NCBI RefSeq assembly: GCF_055900595.2
Contig: NZ_CM148325.1
Direction: 5' to 3' (one strand)
DNA length: 64,000 bases
Shown: positions 1,339-17,261 of the stretch, piece by piece
Layout of the letters: each line of letters opens with the position of its first letter
How positions within the stretch are numbered: the stretch's first letter is position 1
The notes under the pieces: model-generated
What the model was told of the DNA's origin: nothing
What the model saw: the letters and a program-made list of their open reading frames with translations, nothing else
The model's database searches: none
Program-made: the position numbers and the translations under genes

Positions 1339-2559
1339 ATGAAATACCACTCAGAACCTCTGGTTCCCCATAAATCGGCCCTGATGCAAATGCCCGCAAA
1401 TCTCCTTGCCGAAGATGTCTGTTTACCTGCCGCGATCATTAAAAAGCAGGCCCTGGAGAACAACATTGCGTGGATGCAGCGTTATGCTGACGCGCGCGGC
1501 GTTTCGCTGGCACCGCACGGTAAAACCACCATGACGCCGTGGATTTTTCAGGCGCAGCAGGCGGCTGGTGCCTGGGCAATAGGTGTCGGTAGCGCATGGC
1601 AGGCTGGTGCGGCAATGGCGAGCGGTATTCAGCGAGTGCTGATGGTTAACCAGCTGGTCGGCAAGGCGAATATGCAGTTGATTGCCCAGTTGCAACGACA
1701 TTACCCGACGGTCGATTTTATCTGCTGTATCGACAGCATTGAGAACGCCCGCGCTTTGTCTGCCTTTTTTGCCAGTCAGCAACAGACACTGAACGTGATG
1801 ATTGAGTTGGGTGTCCCCGGCGGACGCTGTGGCTGCCGCTCAACGGATGCCGCACTGGCACTGGCTAAACAGGCGGCCCAATTACCAGGGCTACGTCTGC
1901 GCGGGCTTGAGTTATATGAAGGTGTTTTACACGGTGACGATCCACAACCGCAGGTAGAAGCACTGCTGCGGGATGCCGCACAACTGGCCTGTGATATGGC
2001 AAGTCTGGTTGATGGCGAGTTTATTCTCACCGGAGCAGGCACGGTCTGGTATGACGTGGTGTGCAATATCTGGCTGGCGGCAGAAAAGCCTGATAACTGC
2101 CGCATTGTTATTCGCCCTGGCTGCTACATCACTCACGACACCGGGATCTACGACGCGGCACAACAACAGTTGCTTGCCCGTGATCCTGTGGCCTGTGATC
2201 TGGCAGGCGATCTCACATCTGCGCTGGAACTGGTCGCCATGGTGCAATCGGTGCCGGAAGCTGATCGTGCGGTGGTAAATTTTGGTAAGCGTGATTGCGC
2301 CTTCGACGCCGGACTGCCGCAACCAGTCGCCCACTATCGCAACGGCAAATCACTGGCATTTGATCCACAGGCGATTCGCAGTACAGGCATTATGGATCAG
2401 CACTGCATGTTGCAACTGTCAGCTAATAGCGACGTGCAAGTGGGGGATATTCTGGTGTTTGGCACATCGCATCCGTGCCTGACCTTCGACAAATGGAAAA
2501 CGTTGTTATTGGCTGATGACGACTACAACGTACTGGCAGAATTAGACACTCTCTTCTAA
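1339..2559 (+). CDS. PLP-dependent alanine-racemase-fold enzyme, DSD1 family (D-serine deaminase / D-threonine aldolase-like)
   Basis: ORF track 406 aa. N-terminal PHGKTT lysine motif characteristic of alanine-racemase-fold PLP enzymes; C-terminal region resembles the D-serine dehydratase-like domain. Divergent from the amidohydrolase gene across an AT-rich intergenic region. Confidence 0.6.
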   Translation: MKYHSEPLVPHKSALMQMPANLLAEDVCLPAAIIKKQALENNIAWMQRYADARGVSLAPHGKTTMTPWIFQAQQAAGAWAIGVGSAWQAGAAMASGIQRVLMVNQLVGKANMQLIAQLQRHYPTVDFICCIDSIENARALSAFFASQQQTLNVMIELGVPGGRCGCRSTDAALALAKQAAQLPGLRLRGLELYEGVLHGDDPQPQVEALLRDAAQLACDMASLVDGEFILTGAGTVWYDVVCNIWLAAEKPDNCRIVIRPGCYITHDTGIYDAAQQQLLARDPVACDLAGDLTSALELVAMVQSVPEADRAVVNFGKRDCAFDAGLPQPVAHYRNGKSLAFDPQAIRSTGIMDQHCMLQLSANSDVQVGDILVFGTSHPCLTFDKWKTLLLADDDYNVLAELDTLF

Positions 2560-4977: not shown

Positions 4978-5026
4978 CCGTGTTTAGCCCCGCTTCGGCG
5001 GGGCTTTGTTCTTATCAGAGTGAACT

Positions 5027-5230
5027 ATGTTTGGTAACTTAGGACAGGCAAAAAAATATCTCGGCCAGGCGGCGAAGATGTTGATTGGCATTCCAGACTA
5101 CGACAACTACGTCGAGCATATGAAGACCAACCATCCCGACAAGCCGTACATGAGCTATGAAGAATTCTTCCGCGAACGCCAGAACGCACGCTACGGCGGC
5201 GATGGTAAAGGCGGTATGCGCTGTTGTTAA
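5027..5230 (+). CDS. yjiX: small DUF466-family protein YjiX
   Basis: 67-aa ORF immediately downstream of btsT, in the conserved position of yjiX. Confidence 0.8.
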
Positions 5231-5240
5231 TGGAGAGAGC

Positions 5241-6197
5241 ATGAACCCGATTGCAGTTACCCTACTCACCGGTTTTTTAGGCGCAGGCAAAACCACCCTG
5301 CTGCGCCATATTCTTAATGAACAACACGGCTACAAGATTGCCGTGATTGAAAACGAATTCGGCGAAGTCTCCGTTGATGATCAACTGATTGGCGACCGCG
5401 CCACACAGATCAAAACGCTGACCAACGGCTGCATCTGTTGTTCGCGCTCCAACGAGCTGGAGGACGCGCTACTCGACCTGCTGGATAATCTCGACAAGGG
5501 CAATATTCAGTTCGACCGTCTGGTCATTGAATGCACCGGCATGGCCGATCCCGGCCCGATTATTCAGACCTTTTTCTCCCATGAGATTTTATGCCAGCGT
5601 TACCTGCTGGACGGCGTGATTGCGCTGGTGGATGCGGTACATGCCGATGAGCAGATGAACCAGTTCACCATCGCCCAGTCACAGGTTGGCTACGCCGACC
5701 GCATTCTGCTGACCAAAACCGACGTCGCAGGCGAAGCAGAAAAACTGCGTGAACGCCTGGCGCGCATCAACGCCCGCGCACCGGTCTACACCGTCACCCA
5801 CGGCGACATCGATCTGGGCCTGCTGTTCAACACCAACGGTTTTATGCTGGAAGAAAACGTCGTCAGCACCAAACCGCGTTTCCACTTTATCGCGGATAAA
5901 CAAAACGATATTTCGTCGATTGTGGTAGAACTGGATTACCCAGTAGATATCAGCGAAGTTTCCCGCGTGATGGAAAACCTGCTGCTGGAGTCGGCGGATA
6001 AACTGCTGCGTTACAAAGGGATGCTGTGGATTGACGGCGAACCAAATCGCCTGCTGTTCCAGGGCGTCCAGCGCCTCTACAGCGCCGACTGGGACCGCCC
6101 GTGGGGCGATGAAAAACCGCATAGCACAATGGTGTTTATCGGGATCCAGCTGCCGGAGGATGAGATTCGGGCAGCGTTTGCGGGGTTGAGGAAGTAA
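5241..6197 (+). CDS. yjiA: CobW/COG0523-family metal-binding GTPase YjiA
   Basis: ORF track 5157..6197; start set at in-frame MNPIAVTLLTGFLGAGKTTLL (Walker A GxxGxGKT and CxCC metal motif GCICCS) giving 318 aa. GGAG precedes this ATG. Confidence 0.9.
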   Translation: MNPIAVTLLTGFLGAGKTTLLRHILNEQHGYKIAVIENEFGEVSVDDQLIGDRATQIKTLTNGCICCSRSNELEDALLDLLDNLDKGNIQFDRLVIECTGMADPGPIIQTFFSHEILCQRYLLDGVIALVDAVHADEQMNQFTIAQSQVGYADRILLTKTDVAGEAEKLRERLARINARAPVYTVTHGDIDLGLLFNTNGFMLEENVVSTKPRFHFIADKQNDISSIVVELDYPVDISEVSRVMENLLLESADKLLRYKGMLWIDGEPNRLLFQGVQRLYSADWDRPWGDEKPHSTMVFIGIQLPEDEIRAAFAGLRK

Positions 6198-6206
6198 TTT
6201 TAGATG

Positions 6207-6240
6207 ATGGCCGCCATGTGGCGGCCTGAATTATTTTTTA
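6207..6240. terminator. bidirectional terminator candidate between convergent yjiA and brnA
   Basis: GGCCGCCATGTGGCGGCC hairpin flanked by T-runs on both strands. Coordinates approximate. Confidence 0.45.
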
Positions 6241-6533
6241 TTCTGATCGCGCAGCATCGCTTCACGTAAAATTGCGTTCAGGCGAGTTTGATAGCCTTTA
6301 CCTGGTCGCTTCAACCATTCCATCACATCAGCATCAATACGCACCGAAGCCTGAGTTTTCAATGGCCGATAAAACTTACCGCGTTCTGCGTTAGACCATT
6401 GCTCATCGCTGGAAGGTGGGATATCACTGTAATCAATATCTTCGTCGGATTTATTCGCCAGCGCCTTCAGTTCGGCCTCATGCTGCACATCGAGTGTAGA
6501 GGAGGTCCCTCGTTTATGTTTAACCATGCTCAT
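6231..6533 (-). CDS. brnA: BrnA-like antitoxin
   Basis: In-frame start at MSMVKHKRG... (aa 48 of ORF 6231..6674) gives 100 aa. Lies downstream of and overlaps the BrnT-like gene by about 14 nt, the typical brnTA arrangement. Confidence 0.75.
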   Translation of the reverse strand: MSMVKHKRGTSSTLDVQHEAELKALANKSDEDIDYSDIPPSSDEQWSNAERGKFYRPLKTQASVRIDADVMEWLKRPGKGYQTRLNAILREAMLRDQNKK

Positions 6534-6807
6534 AGCGATTCCTCTCTTTACGATCTGCTTTTCGTGCTCTGATGATTCGAATAATTTCATTTCCGCTTTC
6601 GAAACGGATGGTATGCGCAACCAGAATAACCACGATGCCGTAAACCAGGCCGATTGTCTGCCAGCGATACTCACCGTTTTCTATGCGATCTTGCTGTGAC
6701 AAATGTTGTGGATCATCAAACACTAACACCGCATCTTCAAAGCGGATGCCATGTTTCACCCGATTACCTTTGGCCTTGTTTGCATCCCATTTAAACTCCA
6801 TTGGCAT
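6520..6807 (-). CDS. brnT: BrnT-like toxin (DUF497 ribonuclease family)
   Basis: ORF track 6520..6852; product contains MPMEFKWDANKAKGNRVKHGIRFEDAVLVFDDP, the conserved BrnT N-terminus. Start chosen at MPMEF (aa 16); aa 13 or aa 18 are alternatives. Confidence 0.75.
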   Translation of the reverse strand: MPMEFKWDANKAKGNRVKHGIRFEDAVLVFDDPQHLSQQDRIENGEYRWQTIGLVYGIVVILVAHTIRFESGNEIIRIIRARKADRKERNRYEHG

Positions 6808-7003
6808 AGTTGCCATCCCTAATTGTATATACAAAAATGTATCTACAATCATTCTGCAATTATAGCGTTGATGTTGGAAATAGCATCACGTTTTGGATAA
6901 TCAACCATGAAATTGACAATGTGTGAGTTGGACTTGATTCATCCAATAGAATTTCTCGCCTGACATGGCACACTAAGCACCTCGCTGTCGTTAAGGGATT
7001 ACC

Positions 7004-8170
7004 GTGAAAAACTACAAAGTTATTACTCCGCTTTTTCCTACCTATGCGCAAGTTAAGGCTATGATGAAAGCCGTATCAGGCTATTCCCTGAAAGCGGTGC
7101 GCAATATGATTACTGCCATTCACGAGCAAACCGGAACGCCGCAAAAACCCGTTGACTGGTCGGAACCTGACCTGTGGATCAGCGAACGCTTAACGGGTGA
7201 AGATGCCGACATCGCCCGTCGTATTTGGGATACCGATAATCACATATTGAACCCGCGCCACAGCTACGGCTGCTACTTATTCCTTAACTATCCCCAGTTT
7301 GAGCTGATGGAAAGCACGCCAGACGATACCTGGCAGCCCACCTCGCGCGGGCAAAAATTCCTGCAAGATGACGAAAAAACGCTGCGTTCACTGGACGATC
7401 AGGAAGGCATTCTGCAACTTCTTGAACTGTTGGCAGGCCGTGAAATGTCGCGCCGCGCCGATTTATTGCCGGAATGGCAGGCCTTTTTGCATCAACATTC
7501 AAAATTCGCGTCTGCCAGTTCGGTGAAAAGCACACTCTACTCCCGACTCTATAATCTTATCGACCGTGACATGGTTACTCGCGAAGGTATGAGCTATCGC
7601 ATCACCGATACCGGGCGCGCCTGGCTTGGAAAAGCGTTGCCGGCACGAAAAAGCGATCCGCGTAAAGAGCTGCTGGAAGCGGTGAAACGCTACAACGAGC
7701 AGCAAAAAGAGCTGCTGCGCGAGCAAATCAGCACGATGAACCCGTACAAATTTGAGCAACTGGTCGGTCAATTACTGGAAGCAATGGGCTACGAGCAGGT
7801 CGAAGTGACCAAAGCCTCAGGCGATAAAGGCGTGGACGTGATTGGTCAGGTGCAGGTCGGCATCACCACCATTACAGAAGTGGTGCAGGTCAAAAGAATG
7901 CAGAACACTATCACTCGCCCGTATATCGACCAGTTGCGCGGGGCGTTGCCTTACCACAAAGCCATTCGCGGTACGCTCATCACCACCGGGAAATTTGCGG
8001 CGAAATGTGCAGAAGCGGCGCTCTTTCCGGGGGCAGCGCCCATTACGCTTATCGACGGCGATCGCTTACTGGAACTGTTAATCGAAAATAACGTCGGCAT
8101 TCGCCGCAGCAATGCAGTGGAATTGCTGGATGTAGATTTGCAGTTGTTTGATGAGCTGGAGATGGATTAA
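7004..8170 (+). CDS. mrr: Mrr-family Type IV restriction endonuclease (longer than K-12 Mrr)
   Basis: 388 aa; C-terminal Mrr catalytic-domain motifs (GDKGVDVIG ... VVQVKR ... LITTGKF) seen in the translation. The ORF track M corresponds to a GTG start preceded by AAGGGA. N-terminal two-thirds does not match K-12 Mrr as I recall it. Confidence 0.7.
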   Translation: MKNYKVITPLFPTYAQVKAMMKAVSGYSLKAVRNMITAIHEQTGTPQKPVDWSEPDLWISERLTGEDADIARRIWDTDNHILNPRHSYGCYLFLNYPQFELMESTPDDTWQPTSRGQKFLQDDEKTLRSLDDQEGILQLLELLAGREMSRRADLLPEWQAFLHQHSKFASASSVKSTLYSRLYNLIDRDMVTREGMSYRITDTGRAWLGKALPARKSDPRKELLEAVKRYNEQQKELLREQISTMNPYKFEQLVGQLLEAMGYEQVEVTKASGDKGVDVIGQVQVGITTITEVVQVKRMQNTITRPYIDQLRGALPYHKAIRGTLITTGKFAAKCAEAALFPGAAPITLIDGDRLLELLIENNVGIRRSNAVELLDVDLQLFDELEMD

Positions 8171-8233
8171 AGGGCGAAATCTGCCGTCTCTACCATTACA
8201 ATAGCGACCCAATTTATCTGAACAGAGTTCATC

Positions 8234-9853
8234 ATGGCCAAAGCACCAACTAAAAAAGCCAAAGCAAAGAAAGGCTTTGAAGAAACATTATGGGATACCG
8301 CAAACCAACTTCGCGGTAGCGTTGAGTCTTCCGAATACAAGCACGTGGTGTTGAGCCTCGTGTTCCTGAAATTCATCAGCGATAAGTTTGAAGCACGCCG
8401 CAAAAAAATGATTGCCGATGGGCAAGCTGACTTCCTTGAGATGGAAGTGTTCTACCAGCAGGACAACATTTTCTACCTGCCGGAAGAGGCGCGCTGGTCA
8501 TTTATCAAACAAAATGCCAAACAGGACGATATTGCGGTTCGTATTGACACCGCCCTCTCGACCATTGAGAAACGTAACCCAACCCTGAAAGGCGCGCTGC
8601 CAGACAACTACTTCAGCCGTCAGAATCTGGAAACCAAAAAACTGGCGTCACTGATTGATACCATCGACAACATCGAAACGCTGGCACACGAAACTGACGT
8701 TGAAACGTTATCGAAAGAAGACCTGGTCGGACGCGTTTACGAATACTTCCTCGGTAAGTTTGCCGCAACTGAAGGCAAAGGCGGTGGTGAGTTCTACACG
8801 CCAAAATGTGTGGTTACACTGTTAACAGAAATGCTCGAACCCTTCCAGGGCAAAATTTATGACCCGTGCTGCGGCTCGGCGGGGATGTTTGTGCAGTCAG
8901 TGAAGTTTGTCGAGAGCCATCAGGGTAAAAGTCGTGATATCGCGCTGTATGGTCAGGAACTGACAGCCACGACGTATAAACTGGCAAAAATGAACCTCGC
9001 TATTCGCGGTCTTTCAGCTAACCTCGGCGAACGCCCGGCAAACACTTTCTTTAGCGACCAGCACCCGAACCTGAAAGCCGACTACATTCTAGCGAACCCG
9101 CCGTTCAACCTGAAAGACTGGCGTAATGAAGCCGAATTAACCAAAGATCCACGTTTTGCCGGTTATCGTATGCCGCCAACCGGTAACGCCAACTACGGCT
9201 GGATTTTGCATATGCTCTCCAAGCTGTCGGCTAACGGCACAGCAGGTTTTGTGTTGGCAAACGGATCGATGAGTTCTAACACCAGCGGCGAAGGCGAGAT
9301 CCGTGCACAGATGATCGAAAATGATCTGATTGACTGCATGATCGCCCTACCTGGACAGTTGTTTTACACCACGCAGATCCCGGTGTGTTTATGGTTTATG
9401 ACCAAATCGAAGGCTGCCGATCCGGCCAAAGGTTATCGTGATCGTCAGGGCGAGACGCTGTTTATTGATGCGCGTAACCTCGGCACCATGGTTAGCCGCA
9501 CAACTAAAGAGTTAACGACGGAAGATATTGCCACAATCGCCGATACCTACCATGCCTGGCGCAGCACGCCGGAAGAACTGGCTGCGCGGATTGCGCGTGG
9601 TGACAGCAAGCTGGAAAAATATGAAGACCAGGCAGGCTTCTGCAAAGTTGCGACCCTGCAAGATATTAAAGATAACGACTACGTTCTGACACCGGGCCGC
9701 TATGTGGGTGCAGCCGAGCAGGAAGAAGACGGCGTGGCATTTGAGACGAAAATGCATGAATTGTCGAAGACGTTGTTTGAGCAGATGAAGCAGGCGGAAG
9801 AACTGGATCGTGCGATTCGCCAGAATCTGGAGGCGCTGGGTTATGGGGAGTAA
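8234..9853 (+). CDS. hsdM: Type I restriction-modification methyltransferase subunit HsdM
   Basis: 539 aa; N6-adenine methyltransferase motifs GEFYTP (X), DPCCGSAGMF (I) and NPPFN (IV) present in the translation. Confidence 0.9.
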   Translation: MAKAPTKKAKAKKGFEETLWDTANQLRGSVESSEYKHVVLSLVFLKFISDKFEARRKKMIADGQADFLEMEVFYQQDNIFYLPEEARWSFIKQNAKQDDIAVRIDTALSTIEKRNPTLKGALPDNYFSRQNLETKKLASLIDTIDNIETLAHETDVETLSKEDLVGRVYEYFLGKFAATEGKGGGEFYTPKCVVTLLTEMLEPFQGKIYDPCCGSAGMFVQSVKFVESHQGKSRDIALYGQELTATTYKLAKMNLAIRGLSANLGERPANTFFSDQHPNLKADYILANPPFNLKDWRNEAELTKDPRFAGYRMPPTGNANYGWILHMLSKLSANGTAGFVLANGSMSSNTSGEGEIRAQMIENDLIDCMIALPGQLFYTTQIPVCLWFMTKSKAADPAKGYRDRQGETLFIDARNLGTMVSRTTKELTTEDIATIADTYHAWRSTPEELAARIARGDSKLEKYEDQAGFCKVATLQDIKDNDYVLTPGRYVGAAEQEEDGVAFETKMHELSKTLFEQMKQAEELDRAIRQNLEALGYGE

Positions 9854-11207
9854 GTTTCAACTAATTTTATTAGATAATGTGGCCGAGGTAATCGACTCTA
9901 GACATAAAACCCCCAATTACACAGAAACCGGCTACCCAATGGTTCGTGTTGTCGATATTAAAAATGGTGAATTAGATTTAAAGAATACAAAGAGAGTCAC
10001 AAAGGATATATACGAGGACTTTTCAAAAGGACGATCTCCACAGATTGGAGATCTCATTATTTCCCGAGTAGGCTCATATGGGAACATATCCTACGTTTCA
10101 AAAAATGAAAAATTTTGCCTAGGGCAAAACACTGCATTTATTATCCCAAATGAAAAAAATAGCTATCTATATTATGCTTTAATATCTCCTTTTGTACAAC
10201 AACAAATTAACGACATGGCTGTCGGTGCTGTACAAAAAACAATTAGTTTAAAAAGCATTAAAAATTTAAAAATTCCGTACCCAGAGTTAAATATAAGAAA
10301 TATTATTTCTAAAAAATTAAGAGTTATTGATAATAGGATAAGTACTAATGATAAAATAAATCAAACCCTGGAAAAAATGTCCCAAACCCTGTTCAAATCC
10401 TGGTTTGTGGATTTTGATCCGGTGATTGATAACGCTCTGGATGCAGGAAATCCAATCCCGGAAACCCTGCAATCTCGTACCGAATTGCGTCAAAAAGTAC
10501 GTAATAGTACAGATTTTAAACCGCTTCCGGCGGAAATTCGCTCGCTTTTCCCAAGTGAATTTGAAGAAACGGAGTTGGGTTGGGTGCCAAAGGGCTGGAC
10601 GCTGAAGTCTGTAGCAAAATCCATAAATATAAATCCTAGTCTAAAATTACCAAAAAATAAAATCGCAAAGTATGTTGATATGAAATCTTTACCTACTCAA
10701 GGATATTCAATATCAGATATTATTGAAAAGCCATATTCAGGGGGAGCGAAATTCCAAAATAACGATACTTTATTCGCTCGGATAACTCCATGCCTAGAAA
10801 ATGGTAAAACAGGATTTGTTGATTTTTTAGATGAAAAAGAGACTGCGTTTGGCTCTACTGAATTTATAGTGATGCGAGGTACTCCTCAAGTACATTATTT
10901 GTATGTGGCTTGTTTAGCCCGAGAAAGTAATTTCAGGTTACATGCAATACAAAACATGATCGGTTCATCCGGCCGCCAACGGGTACAGAATAGCTGCTTT
11001 GATAGCTTTTATATTGCAATACCAACACCTGCTGTAATGAGCTTATTTTCAGGAAAAGTCAGTAGTTACTTTGATAAAATGTATTTCTGTAATTTGGAAA
11101 ACAAATCCCTGACAGCCCTCCGCGACACCCTGCTCCCGAAACTCATCTCCGGCGAGCTATCCCTGGAAGATCTTCCGGATCTCACCACCGATACAGAAGC
11201 CGCATAA
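9843..11207 (+). CDS. hsdS: Type I restriction-modification specificity subunit HsdS (two TRDs)
   Basis: ORF track 9810..11207; start set at in-frame MGSKFQL (aa 12), overlapping the hsdM stop. Two AT-rich variable regions separated and followed by conserved spacer segments (LFKSWFVDFDP ..., LRDTLLPKLISGEL). Confidence 0.85.
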   Translation: MGSKFQLILLDNVAEVIDSRHKTPNYTETGYPMVRVVDIKNGELDLKNTKRVTKDIYEDFSKGRSPQIGDLIISRVGSYGNISYVSKNEKFCLGQNTAFIIPNEKNSYLYYALISPFVQQQINDMAVGAVQKTISLKSIKNLKIPYPELNIRNIISKKLRVIDNRISTNDKINQTLEKMSQTLFKSWFVDFDPVIDNALDAGNPIPETLQSRTELRQKVRNSTDFKPLPAEIRSLFPSEFEETELGWVPKGWTLKSVAKSININPSLKLPKNKIAKYVDMKSLPTQGYSISDIIEKPYSGGAKFQNNDTLFARITPCLENGKTGFVDFLDEKETAFGSTEFIVMRGTPQVHYLYVACLARESNFRLHAIQNMIGSSGRQRVQNSCFDSFYIAIPTPAVMSLFSGKVSSYFDKMYFCNLENKSLTALRDTLLPKLISGELSLEDLPDLTTDTEAA

Positions 11208-11301
11208 CGCATTTTGCCCCTGTAAAATCAGGGGCTTTCTGGTAAGGTTTTCTACTGATACGGGAATGCTTACCAGAAATTAGCCAGGGTTGGAGCGCGA
11301 T

Positions 11302-14300
11302 ATGAGTCTCTCTTTCAGTGAAGCAAAATTAGAACAAGCGATCATTGAACTGTTACAGGATCAGGGATATCAACACCTGATCGGCGATAATGTCCCACGT
11401 TCAAGTCTCGATCAGGTCATTATCGAAGACGATCTCCGTCATTATTTAGCGGCACGCTACCAGCCTGATGGCATTACTGAAGAAGAGATTCAGCGACTGA
11501 TCAAACAGTTCACCACGCTCCCCGCTTCCGATCTTTATGAAAGCAACAAAACATTTTGTCGCTGGCTGGCAAATGGTTTTCTGTTCAAACGCGACGATCG
11601 GCAACAAAAAGATCTCTATATTGAATTGCTCGACACCCGGCATCTACCTGCCGCACTGCGCCAGATATTTGACGCCGAAGATGTCCCGTTGCAACAGGCG
11701 GCGGAACTCCCGCCCTCCTATATTAATCCGCCGCTTAACCGGATTAAGATTGTTAACCAGCTTAAAATCTCTGGTAAAGATAATCAGACTCGTATTCCTG
11801 ACGGCATTCTCTATATCAACGGTCTGCCACTGGTCGTCTTTGAATTTAAAAGTGCGGTGCGCGAGCAGGATGCCAGTATTGGCGATGCCTGGAAGCAGCT
11901 CTGTAAACGCTATCGCCGGGATATTCCGCAACTGTTTATCTACAACGCGCTCTGCATTATTAGCGATGGCGTTAATAACCGGATGGGCAACCTGTTTGCG
12001 CCCTATGAATATTTTTACTCATGGCGCAAAGTCACCGGTAATGAAAACCGTGAACAGGACGGAATTCCGTCATTGCACTCAATGATTCAGGGGCTGTTTC
12101 ATCCGGTACGTCTGCTGGATGTGATTAAAAACTTTATCTGCTTCCCGGATAAAGCCAAGCACGAAGTAAAAATTTGCTGCCGTTATCCGCAGTACTATGC
12201 CGCCCGCAAACTCTATTACAGCATCAAGCAAGCGCGTAAACCTTTCGGTAGCGGTAAAGGCGGCACCTACTTTGGCGCAACGGGCTGTGGCAAAAGTTAC
12301 ACCATGCAATTTTTAACGCGTCTTTTGATGAAGAGCGTGGAGTTTGCCAGCCCGACCATTGTTTTGATCACCGACCGCACCGATCTGGACGATCAGCTTT
12401 CTGCGCAAATGTGCAATGCCAAAAATTACATTGGCGACGACACCATCGTTCCTGTTACCAGCCGTGAAGATTTGCGTAATCAACTGGCGGGACGCAATAG
12501 TGGCGGTGTATTCCTGACAACGATCCATAAATTCACCGAAGACACCGAACTCCTTTCTGAACGCAGCAATATCATTTGCATCTCGGACGAAGCACATCGC
12601 AGCCAGGTTAACCTCGACCAGAAAGTCATCGTCGATAAAGAAAGCGGAAAAGTGCGCAAAACTTATGGCTTTGCGAAATACCTGCACGATTCACTGCCAA
12701 ACGCCACCTATGTTGGCTTTACCGGAACTCCGATTGACGCAACACTCGATGTCTTCGGTGAGGTGATCGACAGTTACACCATGACCGAATCCGTTCAGGA
12801 TGAAATCACTGTACGCATCGTGTACGAAGGCCGTGCGGCTAAAGTGATCCTGGACTCCAGCAAACTGGAAGAAGTCGAAAAGTATTACGAAGAGTGCGCA
12901 AACGCAGGCACCAATGAGTGGCAAATCGACGAAAGCAAAAAAGCCACCGCAACCATGAATGCGGTACTGGGTGATGAAGATCGGTTAAAAGCCCTCGCGG
13001 AAGATTTTGCTAAACATTATGAAAAACGCGTAGCCGAAGGTTCCACCGTAAAAGGCAAAGCCATGTTTGTTTGTGCCAGCCGTGAAATTGCCTGGGATTT
13101 CTACCGTCAGCTTAAAGCTATTCGCCCTGCCTGGTATGAAGTGAAGCAAGCCCCCGATGGCGTCGTCCTGACAGAACAGGAGCAAAAAGAGTTACCGCCT
13201 TCTGAAATGGTGAAGATGGTCATGACGCGCGGTAAAGATGACGACGAGGCGCTTTATGATTTACTGGGCACAAAAGAATATCGTAAAGAGCTGGATAAGC
13301 AGTTCAAAAACGCTAAATCGAATTTCAAAATTGCCATTGTTGTTGATATGTGGCTGACCGGTTTTGACGTTCCTGAACTGGATACCATCTATATTGATAA
13401 GCCCTTACAAAAACATAACCTTATCCAGACCATTTCTCGCGTTAACCGTAAACTGGAAGGCAAAAGTAAAGGGTTAGTGGTGGACTACATCGGCATTAAA
13501 AGTCAGATGAACCAGGCACTGGCAATGTATTCCCGCATTGATGCCACCAACTTTGAAGATATTCAGCAATCGGTAATCGAAGTTAAAAACCATCTCGATT
13601 TGTTGGGGCAAGTCTTTTACGAATTTGACAGTCGGGATTATTTTAGTGGTGAGCCACAAGCGCAATTATCCTGCCTCAACCGCGCGGCGGAATTCGTTCT
13701 GAGTACCCAGAAAGTTGAACGTCGTTTTATGGGACTGGTTAAACGCATGAAAGCCGCCTACGACGTCTGCTGCGGCAGCGAAGCATTATCACAGACAGAA
13801 CGTGACTATATTCACTATTATCTTGCTGTTCGTTCAATTGTTTTCAAACTGACGAAAGGTGACGCACCGGATGTTACCCAGATGAATGCACGCGTTCGCG
13901 AAATGATTGCAGAAGCGTTAAAAGCTGATGGCGTAGAAGAGATTTATTTTCTTGGCGATAAAAAAGCGGAATCCATCGATATTTTTGACGAAGATTATCT
14001 GGCGCGAATTAACAAGATCAAACTTCCGGCAACGAAGATCCAGTTATTACAAAAATTACTGGAAAAAGCAATCAGCGACTTCAAGAAAGTGAACCAGTTG
14101 CAAGGGATTAACTTCACCCGCCGCTTCCAGGCGATTATAGATCGTTATAATGAGCGGCGAGAAGATGATGTACTCAACGGTGAAGAATTCGATACATTCA
14201 GTCAGGAAATGACCGATATTATCTATGATATTAAAACCGAAATGGGTACCTGGGCCGACTTAGGCATTGATATTGAAGAAAAAGCCTTTTTCGACATTCT

Positions 14301-14565
14301 TGCTCATATGCGCGATAAATATCAGTTCACCTATGACGATGAAAAAATGCTGTCACTGGCAAAAGAGATGAAAAGCGTGGTTGACAACACATCGAAATAT
14401 CCTGACTGGAGTAAACGCGATGATATTAAAGCGAAACTGAAAGTTGAACTTATTCTGCTTCTACACAAGCATAAGTTCCCGCCAGTAGCGAATGATGATG
14501 TTTATATGGGTGTGCTGGCACAGGCAGAGAATTTTAAAGAACACCATATGAGTGCTTTAAATTAA
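11302..14565 (+). CDS. hsdR: Type I restriction enzyme R subunit HsdR
   Basis: ORF track 11290..14565; helicase motifs GATGCGKSYT (Walker A) and ISDEAHRS (DEAH box) seen. Start placed at second in-frame ATG (MSLSF), which has GGAG upstream; 11290 is the alternative. Confidence 0.9.
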   Translation: MSLSFSEAKLEQAIIELLQDQGYQHLIGDNVPRSSLDQVIIEDDLRHYLAARYQPDGITEEEIQRLIKQFTTLPASDLYESNKTFCRWLANGFLFKRDDRQQKDLYIELLDTRHLPAALRQIFDAEDVPLQQAAELPPSYINPPLNRIKIVNQLKISGKDNQTRIPDGILYINGLPLVVFEFKSAVREQDASIGDAWKQLCKRYRRDIPQLFIYNALCIISDGVNNRMGNLFAPYEYFYSWRKVTGNENREQDGIPSLHSMIQGLFHPVRLLDVIKNFICFPDKAKHEVKICCRYPQYYAARKLYYSIKQARKPFGSGKGGTYFGATGCGKSYTMQFLTRLLMKSVEFASPTIVLITDRTDLDDQLSAQMCNAKNYIGDDTIVPVTSREDLRNQLAGRNSGGVFLTTIHKFTEDTELLSERSNIICISDEAHRSQVNLDQKVIVDKESGKVRKTYGFAKYLHDSLPNATYVGFTGTPIDATLDVFGEVIDSYTMTESVQDEITVRIVYEGRAAKVILDSSKLEEVEKYYEECANAGTNEWQIDESKKATATMNAVLGDEDRLKALAEDFAKHYEKRVAEGSTVKGKAMFVCASREIAWDFYRQLKAIRPAWYEVKQAPDGVVLTEQEQKELPPSEMVKMVMTRGKDDDEALYDLLGTKEYRKELDKQFKNAKSNFKIAIVVDMWLTGFDVPELDTIYIDKPLQKHNLIQTISRVNRKLEGKSKGLVVDYIGIKSQMNQALAMYSRIDATNFEDIQQSVIEVKNHLDLLGQVFYEFDSRDYFSGEPQAQLSCLNRAAEFVLSTQKVERRFMGLVKRMKAAYDVCCGSEALSQTERDYIHYYLAVRSIVFKLTKGDAPDVTQMNARVREMIAEALKADGVEEIYFLGDKKAESIDIFDEDYLARINKIKLPATKIQLLQKLLEKAISDFKKVNQLQGINFTRRFQAIIDRYNERREDDVLNGEEFDTFSQEMTDIIYDIKTEMGTWADLGIDIEEKAFFDILAHMRDKYQFTYDDEKMLSLAKEMKSVVDNTSKYPDWSKRDDIKAKLKVELILLLHKHKFPPVANDDVYMGVLAQAENFKEHHMSALN

Positions 14566-14811
14566 TTATGAAGGCCGGATAATTCAATAATTATTCGGCT
14601 TACTCATTTATAAATATGGTAAAAACATCATAACAATATCTATAAATCATAGTTAAAAAAATCACGCTAACTCATTAAAAATATAAGTATTTTCACATTA
14701 TGGGTAAAAATACCATTCTCCTTTTGAGCTTAACAAATACAGACTCTATCCATTCATAACAGATCCGTGCATAATTTCATTTATCGCAGCACAACCAAAA
14801 CACAACACAAC

Positions 14812-14926
14812 CATCACATCACATCACATCACATCACATCACATCACATCACATCACATCACATCACATCACATCACATCGCATCACATCGCATCACATC
14901 ACATCGCATCACATCGCATTACATCA
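14812..14926. repeat. pentanucleotide microsatellite, about 23 units of CATCA with CATCG/CATTA variants
   Basis: Read directly: (CATCA)n runs uninterrupted from about 14812, with CATCG and CATTA variant units toward the 3' end, in the AT-rich intergenic region between hsdR and the downstream S-M module. Confidence 0.9.
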
Positions 14927-15220
14927 ACTTAACTTAAGTTAATAAATTTAAAACATATAACGCACAAAATTGGTCGTCTGATCTTTAGCGGAAAAAATCA
15001 TGACTGTAAAGTCATCATGTATTAACTACTTTTCCAGATATCACACCATTAAAAAAAATAAAAAAAATCAATTAGTTATAAAATTTTCAAACATAACACA
15101 TAACATTAATCTGATGCTCTCCAAAAAAATTAAGCAGTGCAGGGTGACAACCCCATAGCAGTACGCTACCTTACTGAAAAATTACTTAATACGATACTGA
15201 AAGTTAGAAGGAGCCACACC

Positions 15221-15391
15221 ATGAGGAAAAAGAAAGGGTTAAACCGAGTTATTTGCTTGTTTTTGATAACAATTTTATCACATTTAGTGTCTGATGATGA
15301 TATCCTATTATTTCAGTTAGAGGATCTGTCAAAAGCAAATACCTCTATGGGTATTCATCTTTCCGTTGATTTCAAACATGAGACCAAATGA
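15221..15391 (+). CDS. small ORF (56 aa) translationally coupled to the downstream half-S gene; hypothetical
   Basis: In-frame ATG (aa 29 of ORF 15137..15391) preceded by AGAAGGAG at 7-nt spacing; stop overlaps the next start as ATGA. Product MRKKKGLNRVICLFLITILSHLV... has a basic N-terminus and one hydrophobic stretch. No family recognised. Confidence 0.35.
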   Translation: MRKKKGLNRVICLFLITILSHLVSDDDILLFQLEDLSKANTSMGIHLSVDFKHETK

Positions 15392-15969
15392 TTATGAAAA
15401 ATCTATCAGAGATAGCATATGTTTTTGGTGGACACTCATTTCGTACCAAAGCTGAAGCTGCAACAGGTTGCATCAAACTTATTCAGATAAAAGATATACA
15501 GGCAGGCATATTTGGTGATTTCTCGTCACTTCCTTTTGCAGATCTTTCAGAAGAAAAACTAAAATTCAACCTAAAAACAAATGATATTCTTTTACCTTTA
15601 AGAGGCGAAAGGATAGCAGCAATGATGATAGATAACGAAAATAATGTTGCAGTTACTACAACGAATCAAATTGCCATTATAAGAATTAATAGCAATTTGA
15701 TCACTCCAGAGTATTTGTTATATTTTCTAAATGCACCGAAAGGTATTAATCTGATAAATGAACTACAAGGTAACGGATTGGTTACAAACCTTAGCATAAA
15801 AAAACTTACAACATTAACATTACCGATTCCATCATTGGATATTCAATATGAAGTTATTAACCTTCATAACATGTGGACAAAACAAAAAGAGACCTTATGT
15901 AGTTTAATAGAAAATGGTTCTGCATTGTGTCATGCAACAATCAATAAGTTAATCTACAAAGGAGAGTAA
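15388..15969 (+). CDS. half-size (single-TRD) Type I-like specificity subunit (HsdS-like)
   Basis: 193 aa; begins like a target-recognition domain (LSEIAYVFGGHSF) and ends with the conserved TRD-distal segment (ITPEYLLYFLNAPKGINLINELQGNGLVTNLSIKKLTTLTLPIP). AT-rich codon usage. Followed 3 nt later by the MTase gene. Confidence 0.7.
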   Translation: MIMKNLSEIAYVFGGHSFRTKAEAATGCIKLIQIKDIQAGIFGDFSSLPFADLSEEKLKFNLKTNDILLPLRGERIAAMMIDNENNVAVTTTNQIAIIRINSNLITPEYLLYFLNAPKGINLINELQGNGLVTNLSIKKLTTLTLPIPSLDIQYEVINLHNMWTKQKETLCSLIENGSALCHATINKLIYKGE

Positions 15970-15971
15970 AT

Positions 15972-17231
15972 ATGAAAATACAAGAATTTATAAGCATATT
16001 ACAATCTATCCCCTGCAATTCCCTGGATAAATACCAGAAAATGCTTATTTGTTTTGAAGCTACTGTACTAACTTATTTACATAAGGACTCTGCCAAGAAA
16101 ATTATATCAGTAAGTGAAATGGATATTGAACATATTTACAGACACTCGCCGTCATTAAATAAAAACAAAGTAACATGGGATGAGTTTTCTTATATTTTTT
16201 CAGATATAATCTTTCATATAAAGTCCTCTAACATGGATGTCAATAAATATATATCAAATATATTTCAACACCTTTGTTACGATTATCATCACAAAAAATT
16301 CTCTAAAATAGATATTATTAATATAATCACCTCGAATATTGAGCAACTAAGACCTCTATCTCAAAGGCATCATACTCCTAATGAGTTGGTTGAATTAATG
16401 AGTAAAATAGTCAATATCCAAGATGGTGATATTTTTTATGATCCTGCATGTGGTTCAGGTGAGTTCATTTCTGCAATGTTTAATAAAAATGTCATGATAT
16501 ATGGTACTGAAAGCATCATAGAAAGAGCTAAAATATCAAAATTAAAAATGCTCGCAACCGGAAATAATCCTTTAAATATTACGACGCCATATTTTAACGA
16601 TAATAATCTACCTGAAAAATTTGATATTATTTTATCCAACCCCCCTTTCTCTCTAAAAATACCTGAAAATATGCAAAAAAAAATTTGCATTTATGGAGAA
16701 CCACCTGTTTCAAATGCTGATTTTATATTTTTACAATTCTGCATTTACAAACTAAAAAATAATGGATGCGCTGCTATCATCATGCCGGACAGCATTTTAT
16801 TTAGAAGTGGAAAAGAACAAGAAATACGTAAATCATTTATTGAGAAAGGGCATATTTCCACCATTATTTTTTTACCGAAAGGTATTTTTAAAAACACTTA
16901 TGTACCAACAAGCATTTTGCTACTACGCAAGCAAAATGACTATGACGACATCCTATTCATTGATGCAAGAGATAAAACAACCTTCAACAACGATCTTATA
17001 ATTCATTTATTTACTGAACGTGAAAATAATAAGTTATCGAAGATTGTTACAAAATCAGAAATTGCTGATAATGATTATAACTTGTCAGCAGCATTATATT
17101 TTAAAGAAGAAACAGAAATACCAGAAATAGAACAATTAATAGACAATCAAAAATACCTCAGCAGTAAATTACAGGATTTACATTATGATTTCATTCACAC
17201 TATATCCAGATTATCACCAAAAAATGAATAA
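15972..17231 (+). CDS. compact gamma-class N6-adenine DNA methyltransferase (HsdM-like, 419 aa)
   Basis: Motif I DPACGSGEF and motif IV NPPFS in HsdM-like order and spacing; AGGAG precedes the ATG. Strongly AT-rich. About 130 N-terminal residues unassigned. Confidence 0.8.
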   Translation: MKIQEFISILQSIPCNSLDKYQKMLICFEATVLTYLHKDSAKKIISVSEMDIEHIYRHSPSLNKNKVTWDEFSYIFSDIIFHIKSSNMDVNKYISNIFQHLCYDYHHKKFSKIDIINIITSNIEQLRPLSQRHHTPNELVELMSKIVNIQDGDIFYDPACGSGEFISAMFNKNVMIYGTESIIERAKISKLKMLATGNNPLNITTPYFNDNNLPEKFDIILSNPPFSLKIPENMQKKICIYGEPPVSNADFIFLQFCIYKLKNNGCAAIIMPDSILFRSGKEQEIRKSFIEKGHISTIIFLPKGIFKNTYVPTSILLLRKQNDYDDILFIDARDKTTFNNDLIIHLFTERENNKLSKIVTKSEIADNDYNLSAALYFKEETEIPEIEQLIDNQKYLSSKLQDLHYDFIHTISRLSPKNE

Positions 17232-17261
17232 TTTGCTGCAAAACGCCACGCTAAGCTCCCC

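Follow-up and report, generated by a model that had tools for sequence, protein, structure and literature searches.

A probable type II toxin-antitoxin operon, brnTA, resident beside yjiA at one edge of the enterobacterial immigration control region

Within the window, as we call the whole 64-kb stretch of DNA that was analyzed, two small genes lie between yjiA and a gene for an Mrr-like protein (Table 1). The preliminary description had placed a BrnT-like toxin gene and a BrnA-like antitoxin gene at 6231-6807, overlapping by about 14 nt and opposed in orientation to both flanking genes, and direct reading of the sequence agrees in each respect: two minus-strand genes occupy exactly this span, the end of brnT overlaps the start of brnA by 14 nt, and both yjiA and the Mrr-like gene are carried on the plus strand. 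The same 14-nt overlap is annotated in E. coli RefSeq genomes and in Citrobacter, and its sequence is identical in Salmonella. In the closest complete genome, the NCBI pipeline has the same two genes with the same overlap. Shine-Dalgarno spacing is normal for both genes, and the position of the AGGGA motif favors the ATG at 6807 as the start of brnT over the alternatives at 6816 and 6801. Longer reading frames, namely a 147-aa brnA starting at GTG 6674 and a 110-aa brnT starting at ATG 6852, were rejected on the basis of Shine-Dalgarno spacing, Pfam limits and the RefSeq gene models, and the plus-strand ORFs within the pair (6288-6572 and others) were set aside as shadows of the real genes.

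Table 1 Features of the brnTA locus and its immediate flanks (window coordinates)
Feature	Coordinates	Strand	Remarks
yjiA	5241-6197	+	
Hairpin GGCCGCC-ATGT-GGCGGCC	6209-6226		GC-rich, between convergent yjiA and brnA; likely terminator
brnA	6231-6533	-	100 aa (MSMVKHK...); ATG 6533, stop 6233-6231; second gene
brnT end/brnA start overlap	6520-6533	-	14 nt, ATGAGCATGGTTAA; read from sequence
brnT	6520-6807	-	95 aa (MPMEFKWD...); ATG 6807, TAA 6522-6520; first gene of operon
Shine-Dalgarno GAGAGG for brnA	6541-6546	-	In the 3'-terminal part of brnT; 7 nt ahead of ATG 6533
Shine-Dalgarno AGGGA for brnT	6816-6820	-	Read from sequence; conserved in Salmonella
28-bp palindrome ATTGTATATACA-N4-TGTATCTACAAT	6822-6849		Arms 11/12 complementary; candidate BrnA/BrnTA operator
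-10 hexamer TATAAT	6859-6864	-	Perfect; likely brnTA promoter; read from sequence; conserved in Salmonella
Mrr-like gene	7004-8170	+	

The neighbor beyond brnT had been called mrr-like. The gene is not the mrr of K-12: its product shares 31% identity with K-12 Mrr, confined to the catalytic domain, and the gene is reversed in orientation. The 388-aa protein has a C-terminal Mrr_cat domain and matches the PADLOC candidate system PDC-S02 (E=2.4e-207).

Profile comparisons assign the two proteins to the families, and in the toxin-first order, that had been proposed for them. BrnT matches the Pfam family BrnT_toxin (PF04365, DUF497) along its full length (1-77 of 77 profile positions; E=2e-22, score 79.7 bits, cut-off 34.5), and BrnA matches BrnA_antitoxin (PF14384, DUF4415), again over the complete profile (1-68 of 68; E=2e-17, 63.8 bits, cut-off 26.1), with the match covering BrnA residues 37-93. 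NCBIfam models gave no match to BrnT, BrnA or the Mrr-like protein. RefSeq names the pair "BrnT family toxin" and "BrnA antitoxin family protein". The closest structural relative is PDB entry 7VD7, whose deposition names are simply 'toxin' and 'antitoxin'. Over its whole length, BrnT is 82% identical to chain A (E=5.7e-51), an identity that points to a RelE-like fold, and BrnA residues 14-57 align at 75% identity (E=1.4e-16) with chain B, the piece of antitoxin bound to the toxin, suggesting that this segment of BrnA binds BrnT. Since the 7VD7 chains are 99% (toxin) and 98% (antitoxin) identical to the Salmonella Infantis orthologues of STM4528/STM4529, the entry is evidently a Salmonella complex. 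A literature search by entry name returned no paper describing 7VD7, and STM4528/STM4529 were met only in large-scale Salmonella mutant-screen papers among the literature searched. Similarity to the BrnT of Brucella (3U97) is much more distant (phmmer E=0.01, 33% identity in the alignment).

On the sequence upstream of brnT, a -10 box, the palindrome and the ribosome-binding site follow one another in this order. A consensus promoter scan returned no minus-strand promoter because a good -35 hexamer is absent; the TATAAT hexamer was located by eye, and its conservation in Salmonella backs the choice. The -10 box, the palindrome and the Shine-Dalgarno motif are common to E. coli and Salmonella, and the sequence farther upstream diverges. 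The palindrome gives a single match in the 64-kb window, where none is expected by chance, and its Salmonella counterpart, found at the same place, is perfect and has 14-nt arms. Brucella BrnA binds its own promoter, and the 2:2 complex of toxin and antitoxin is autorepressing (PMC5086665); by analogy, the palindrome is a candidate BrnA operator. At the other end of the operon, the hairpin beyond brnA folds at -17.7 and -16.5 kcal/mol on the two strands and was classed as terminator-like for the plus strand. All aligned E. coli variants have it unchanged, and K-12 lacks it. An Rfam scan of window positions 5000-9000 at E<=1 gave no match. Two strains with truncated brnT also differ in the palindrome: in E. 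coli Z0117EC0032 (5453-5640; window 6838-6849) an 11-bp deletion removes most of one arm, and a second strain carries point changes. Constraint on the operator could have been relaxed in these strains after the toxin was lost.

We consider it very probable that brnTA is a type II toxin-antitoxin operon of the canonical kind, inherited with the chromosome. The observations that carry this assignment were made directly and comprise family membership, gene order, the overlap, the conservation of promoter and palindrome, and the population pattern described below; the RNase activity, its neutralization and autoregulation are carried over from homologous systems. As a plausible mode of operation, the promoter containing the TATAAT hexamer would drive a bicistronic brnT-brnA mRNA, on which translation of brnA may be coupled to that of brnT through the 14-nt overlap. 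BrnT, by homology a small RelE-fold ribonuclease, would stop translation when free. The N-terminal part of BrnA (approximately residues 14-57) is expected from its homologue to wrap around BrnT and neutralize it, and for its C-terminal ribbon-helix-helix part the prediction is binding to the 28-bp palindrome and, thereby, repression of the operon.

Three known systems place the pair in perspective. The Salmonella enterica pair STM4528/STM4529 (7VD7) is orthologous and occupies the same locus; over their full lengths its toxin and antitoxin are 83% and 84% identical, respectively, to the window proteins, and the two loci have the overlap sequence of 14 nt, the palindrome and the -10 box in common. 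It differs in its neighbors, a K-12-type mrr and a type IA hsd system, in the perfection of its palindrome, of which the window version has arms complementary at 11 of 12 positions, and in the toxin, where E6K, S14G and S80R in the window BrnT are among the differences. BrnT/BrnA of Brucella abortus (3U97; Heaton et al. 2012, via PMC5086665) belongs to the same Pfam families, is likewise a toxin-first operon, and is the source of the functional model, i.e., an RNase toxin, a 2:2 complex and autorepression (PMC5086665). However, it is distant in sequence, its catalytic residue E7 is replaced by alanine in the window protein, and its genomic context is another one. The third system, BrnT/BrnA of Acinetobacter plasmids (e.g., beside blaOXA-72 on 8.7-kb plasmids), combines the same two families in the same overlapping gene order, with 57% identity for BrnT and 53% for BrnA, and an inverted repeat with TACAAT/ATTGTA half-sites upstream of brnT that is related to the palindrome of the window and occupies the corresponding position. 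The Acinetobacter pair is plasmid-borne and presumably serves plasmid maintenance, whereas the pair in the window is chromosomal and syntenic across genera.

The preliminary description had regarded the pair as absent from K-12 and inserted between yjiA and the mrr-like gene. Its absence from K-12 holds: in MG1655, which is devoid of brnTA, yjiA and mrr are convergent and just 45 bp apart. The reading as an insertion does not hold. In Salmonella, brnTA (STM4528/STM4529) sits between yjiA (STM4530) and a K-12-type mrr (STM4527); in Citrobacter and Kosakonia it directly adjoins yjiA-yjiX-btsT, with orientation and 14-nt overlap unchanged; and in Enterobacter asburiae it is found beside yjiN, the other anchor of the island. 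Orthologues across the Enterobacteriaceae are 77-86% identical. The occurrence of the pair at the same yjiA border in other genera means that the K-12 junction is better read as a loss, and brnTA most likely goes back to an ancestor that carried it next to yjiA, with later losses in K-12 and roughly 60% of E. coli. A recent horizontal arrival at the yjiA-mrr junction, which would account for the absence from K-12 and could draw on the common occurrence of BrnTA relatives (55-57% identity) on small Acinetobacter plasmids, is most improbable in the face of a position and orientation beside yjiA that are the same in four genera. In addition, neither direct repeats nor mobility genes were found at the flanks of the pair in the window, and the sole E. 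coli 'plasmid' match is an 834-kb record. Similarity between the window and K-12 stops exactly at the yjiA stop codon because the sequence beyond is a different version of the island as a whole, rather than an insertion into a conserved junction. The interval from yjiA to yjiN is the immigration control region, a defense island (PMC12707154), and brnTA would accordingly be an old resident at the yjiA edge of this region in enterobacteria.

Whether the pair has a part in the island was approached through its E. coli context. Among 1993 E. coli genomes with the region upstream of brnT, 880 resemble the window in that the Mrr-like gene follows, and approximately 1113 break at window position 6990 (6990-6993), 10-14 bp before the coding sequence of that gene begins. 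In five of five sampled genomes of the latter class, the break is followed by an IS1 pseudogene, a dienelactone-hydrolase stub, mdtM and yjiN, in this order; these five genomes have lost the restriction island entirely and keep brnTA with its promoter. This class, with its identical IS1-pseudogene junction, is the commonest context of brnTA in E. coli and looks like one old IS1-associated deletion that was inherited widely. In Citrobacter and Kosakonia, the far-side neighbors of brnTA are efflux or aldehyde dehydrogenase genes rather than defense genes. The retention of brnTA where the island is deleted, together with these non-defense neighbors, links the pair to yjiA and not to the defense genes. 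It had also been suggested that the module may stabilize the island, which is contradicted by the roughly 1113 E. coli genomes that keep brnTA although the adjacent restriction island has been deleted: the pair did not prevent the loss of the island beside it. In the genomes sampled, the antitoxin is never the first to be lost (see below), and in this brnTA behaves as a selfish addiction module, not as part of the adjacent restriction systems.

The same data weigh on the proposal that brnTA is a phage-triggered abortive infection module working with the Mrr-like nuclease and the type I restriction system. Its location at the edge of the defense island (PMC12707154), the ability of other RelE-superfamily toxin-antitoxin modules to act in this way (PMC11980606), and the concentration of amino-acid variation in the toxin (see below) would fit such a role. 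However, neither BrnT nor BrnA matches any model in PADLOC-DB 2.0, more than half of the 1993 genomes have no restriction genes left beside brnT, and the Citrobacter and Kosakonia loci adjoin other kinds of genes. A search of a phage collection produced no close relative in a genuine phage record, its one match being a mislabeled Salmonella chromosome contig, and the literature searched held no report of phage defense by BrnTA. On balance, an abortive infection role appears improbable, and we retain the reading of brnTA as a chromosomally inherited addiction operon that happens to border the island.

This reading is in line with the distribution and decay of the pair in E. coli. Of 5426 complete E. 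coli genomes, 2112 (approximately 39%) carry brnTA, with one copy per genome and 2111 of the 2112 copies on the chromosome. It adjoins yjiA at every E. coli locus inspected, and the carriers include ST131, Nissle 1917, E24377A and ATCC 8739. The comparison of this junction across E. coli genomes, which the preliminary description had proposed as a check, thus recovers the pair in a large minority of the species, with a variable context beyond brnT. At a query coverage of at least 80%, brnA is found in 2110 and brnT in 1780 of the 5426 genomes. The approximately 330 defective loci take two forms: either a 158-bp internal deletion reduces brnT to a 33-codon stub, or Fic and GmrSD genes replace brnT, of which the last codons remain. 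One further genome has a frameshifted, otherwise almost full-length brnT. Of the genomes listed in the rankings that were sampled for the two queries, none carried brnT without brnA. If a toxin-antitoxin pair works, the toxin should be lost first and the antitoxin kept, and the order of loss seen here lends indirect support to the view that the BrnT toxin is, or was, active. A similar course is reportedly taken by the chromosomal ccdO157 of E. coli, which, in work by Mine et al. that appeared in Genetics in 2009, is said to occupy a fixed site and, in many strains, to have an inactivated toxin beside a retained antitoxin. The decay of ccdO157 resembles the population pattern of brnTA; the two differ in toxin family (CcdB is a gyrase poison) and in locus.

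Whether the toxin encoded in the window itself is fully active is less certain. RNase activity of Brucella BrnT requires D6, E7, K9, R41 and E78 (reviewed in PMC5086665), and the equivalent positions in the window protein are D8, A9, K11, R48 and E88, i.e., four of the five residues are kept. The exception, Ala9, corresponds to E7 and is the commonest residue at this position in an alignment of 50 BrnT family members that includes Acinetobacter and Brucella sequences (25 of 50). K18 and H19 are kept as well. Against this background, two substitutions stand out: position 6 is Glu in 46 of the 50 sequences, and position 80 is Ser in 48, and the window protein, with K6 (E6K) and R80 (S80R), is the sole member of the alignment with either residue. 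E6 adjoins the catalytic region at W7-D8; S80 belongs to the IISAR motif and is closely followed by R82 and E88. Together with S14G, these changes set the window allele apart from 11 other E. coli alleles, whereas BrnA is identical to the common E. coli allele. Relative to the closest sampled allele, the window brnT has four nucleotide differences, all four of which change an amino acid, and the accompanying BrnA is 100% identical. Because E6K and S80R fall at nearly invariant positions, the toxin of the window could be weakened, and the allele may be attenuated in this lineage.

No brnT at least 99% identical to that of the window occurs in the complete RefSeq genomes searched. Exactly this BrnT is on 362 contigs, where its record name is 'BrnT family toxin [Escherichia coli]', and the window BrnA, 100% identical to RefSeq WP_000063156.1, on at least 1000. 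In all 25 of the contigs read that carry the exact BrnT, the gene neighborhood is the same as in the window, and the allele is accompanied by intact brnA and promoter. In a comparison of 12 E. coli alleles, the variable sites number 11 nonsynonymous and 6 synonymous in brnT and 7 and 14, respectively, in brnA, a trend that hints at relaxed constraint on the toxin and is not statistically significant (Fisher p=0.10).

The extreme interpretation of these changes would be that the locus is a decaying remnant, in which the K6/G14/R80 BrnT is attenuated or inactive, the addiction or stress function is gone, and BrnA alone remains functional. The two substitutions at shared family positions, their proximity to W7-D8 and to R82/E88, and the exclusively amino-acid-changing differences to the closest allele beside an unchanged BrnA all point in this direction, as do the approximately 16% of E. 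coli loci that have lost brnT through deletion and the one frameshift. On the other side, the brnT reading frame is intact, those residues relevant for RNase activity that this clade possesses (D8, K11, K18, H19, R48 and E88) are all present, the exact allele persists with intact brnA and promoter on several hundred contigs, and the nonsynonymous excess falls short of significance. We therefore regard the remnant interpretation as unlikely, if worth bearing in mind, and continue to favor a canonical operon. A more speculative proposal, which we consider quite improbable, is that BrnTA is more than a passive selfish module: it could be a phage- or stress-triggered RNase switch whose toxin is under diversifying selection in E. 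coli, and it could also hold one edge of the immigration control region in place as a barrier to deletions. The former is hinted at by the excess of nonsynonymous over synonymous sites in brnT, not in brnA, and by the E6K/S80R allele, the latter by the common IS1-associated deletion, which ends 14 bp before the start codon of the Mrr-like gene and spares the brnTA promoter.

The brnTA pair is real, ordinary and already annotated; as a discovery it matters little, since its genes bear standard RefSeq names, it occurs in thousands of genomes, and the structure of its Salmonella orthologue has been solved. The useful outcome is a correction of context, with brnTA as an ancestral neighbor of yjiA that is missing in K-12 rather than as cargo of a defense island. 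For the annotation of defense islands, this means that brnTA should not be counted as a defense gene by position alone. E. coli populations display the one-way decay that was to be expected, with the toxin lost and the antitoxin kept.

Several other segments of the window vary between strains. A type I hsdM-hsdS-hsdR set follows the Mrr-like gene at 8234-14565. Relative to the closest genome, hsdM and hsdR are approximately 98% identical, whereas in hsdS (9853-11112) only a 252-bp central stretch matches, at 93%; the target-recognition domains of hsdS are swapped, as is typical of type I systems. Just after hsdR, at 15388-17231 (+), there are a half-size HsdS-like gene (193 aa, Methylase_S) and a gene for a 419-aa N6_Mtase/Eco57I-type methyltransferase, and the segment of approximately 14581-17238 is missing from the otherwise collinear CP104613, which has a symE pseudogene there. 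Farther along, a 685-aa pentapeptide-repeat protein is encoded at 25891-27948 (+), in a segment (approximately 25528-28213) that has no match in CP104613, and the adjoining 28213-30251 (yjiK/yjiJ) is just 81% identical to that genome. At 30507-35747 (+) lies a gene for a 1746-aa inverse autotransporter of the intimin/invasin type, with an IAT_beta domain and many Big_1 and Invasin_D3 repeats, within a 5.7-kb segment that CP104613 lacks. On the other side of brnTA, upstream of btsT, a 406-aa Ala_racemase_N/D-serine-dehydratase-like gene is located at 1339-2559 (+) and is annotated as 'amino acid deaminase' in strain SCU-301; the junction upstream of btsT is variable, being occupied by tsr in K-12 and by hpa genes in CP104613.
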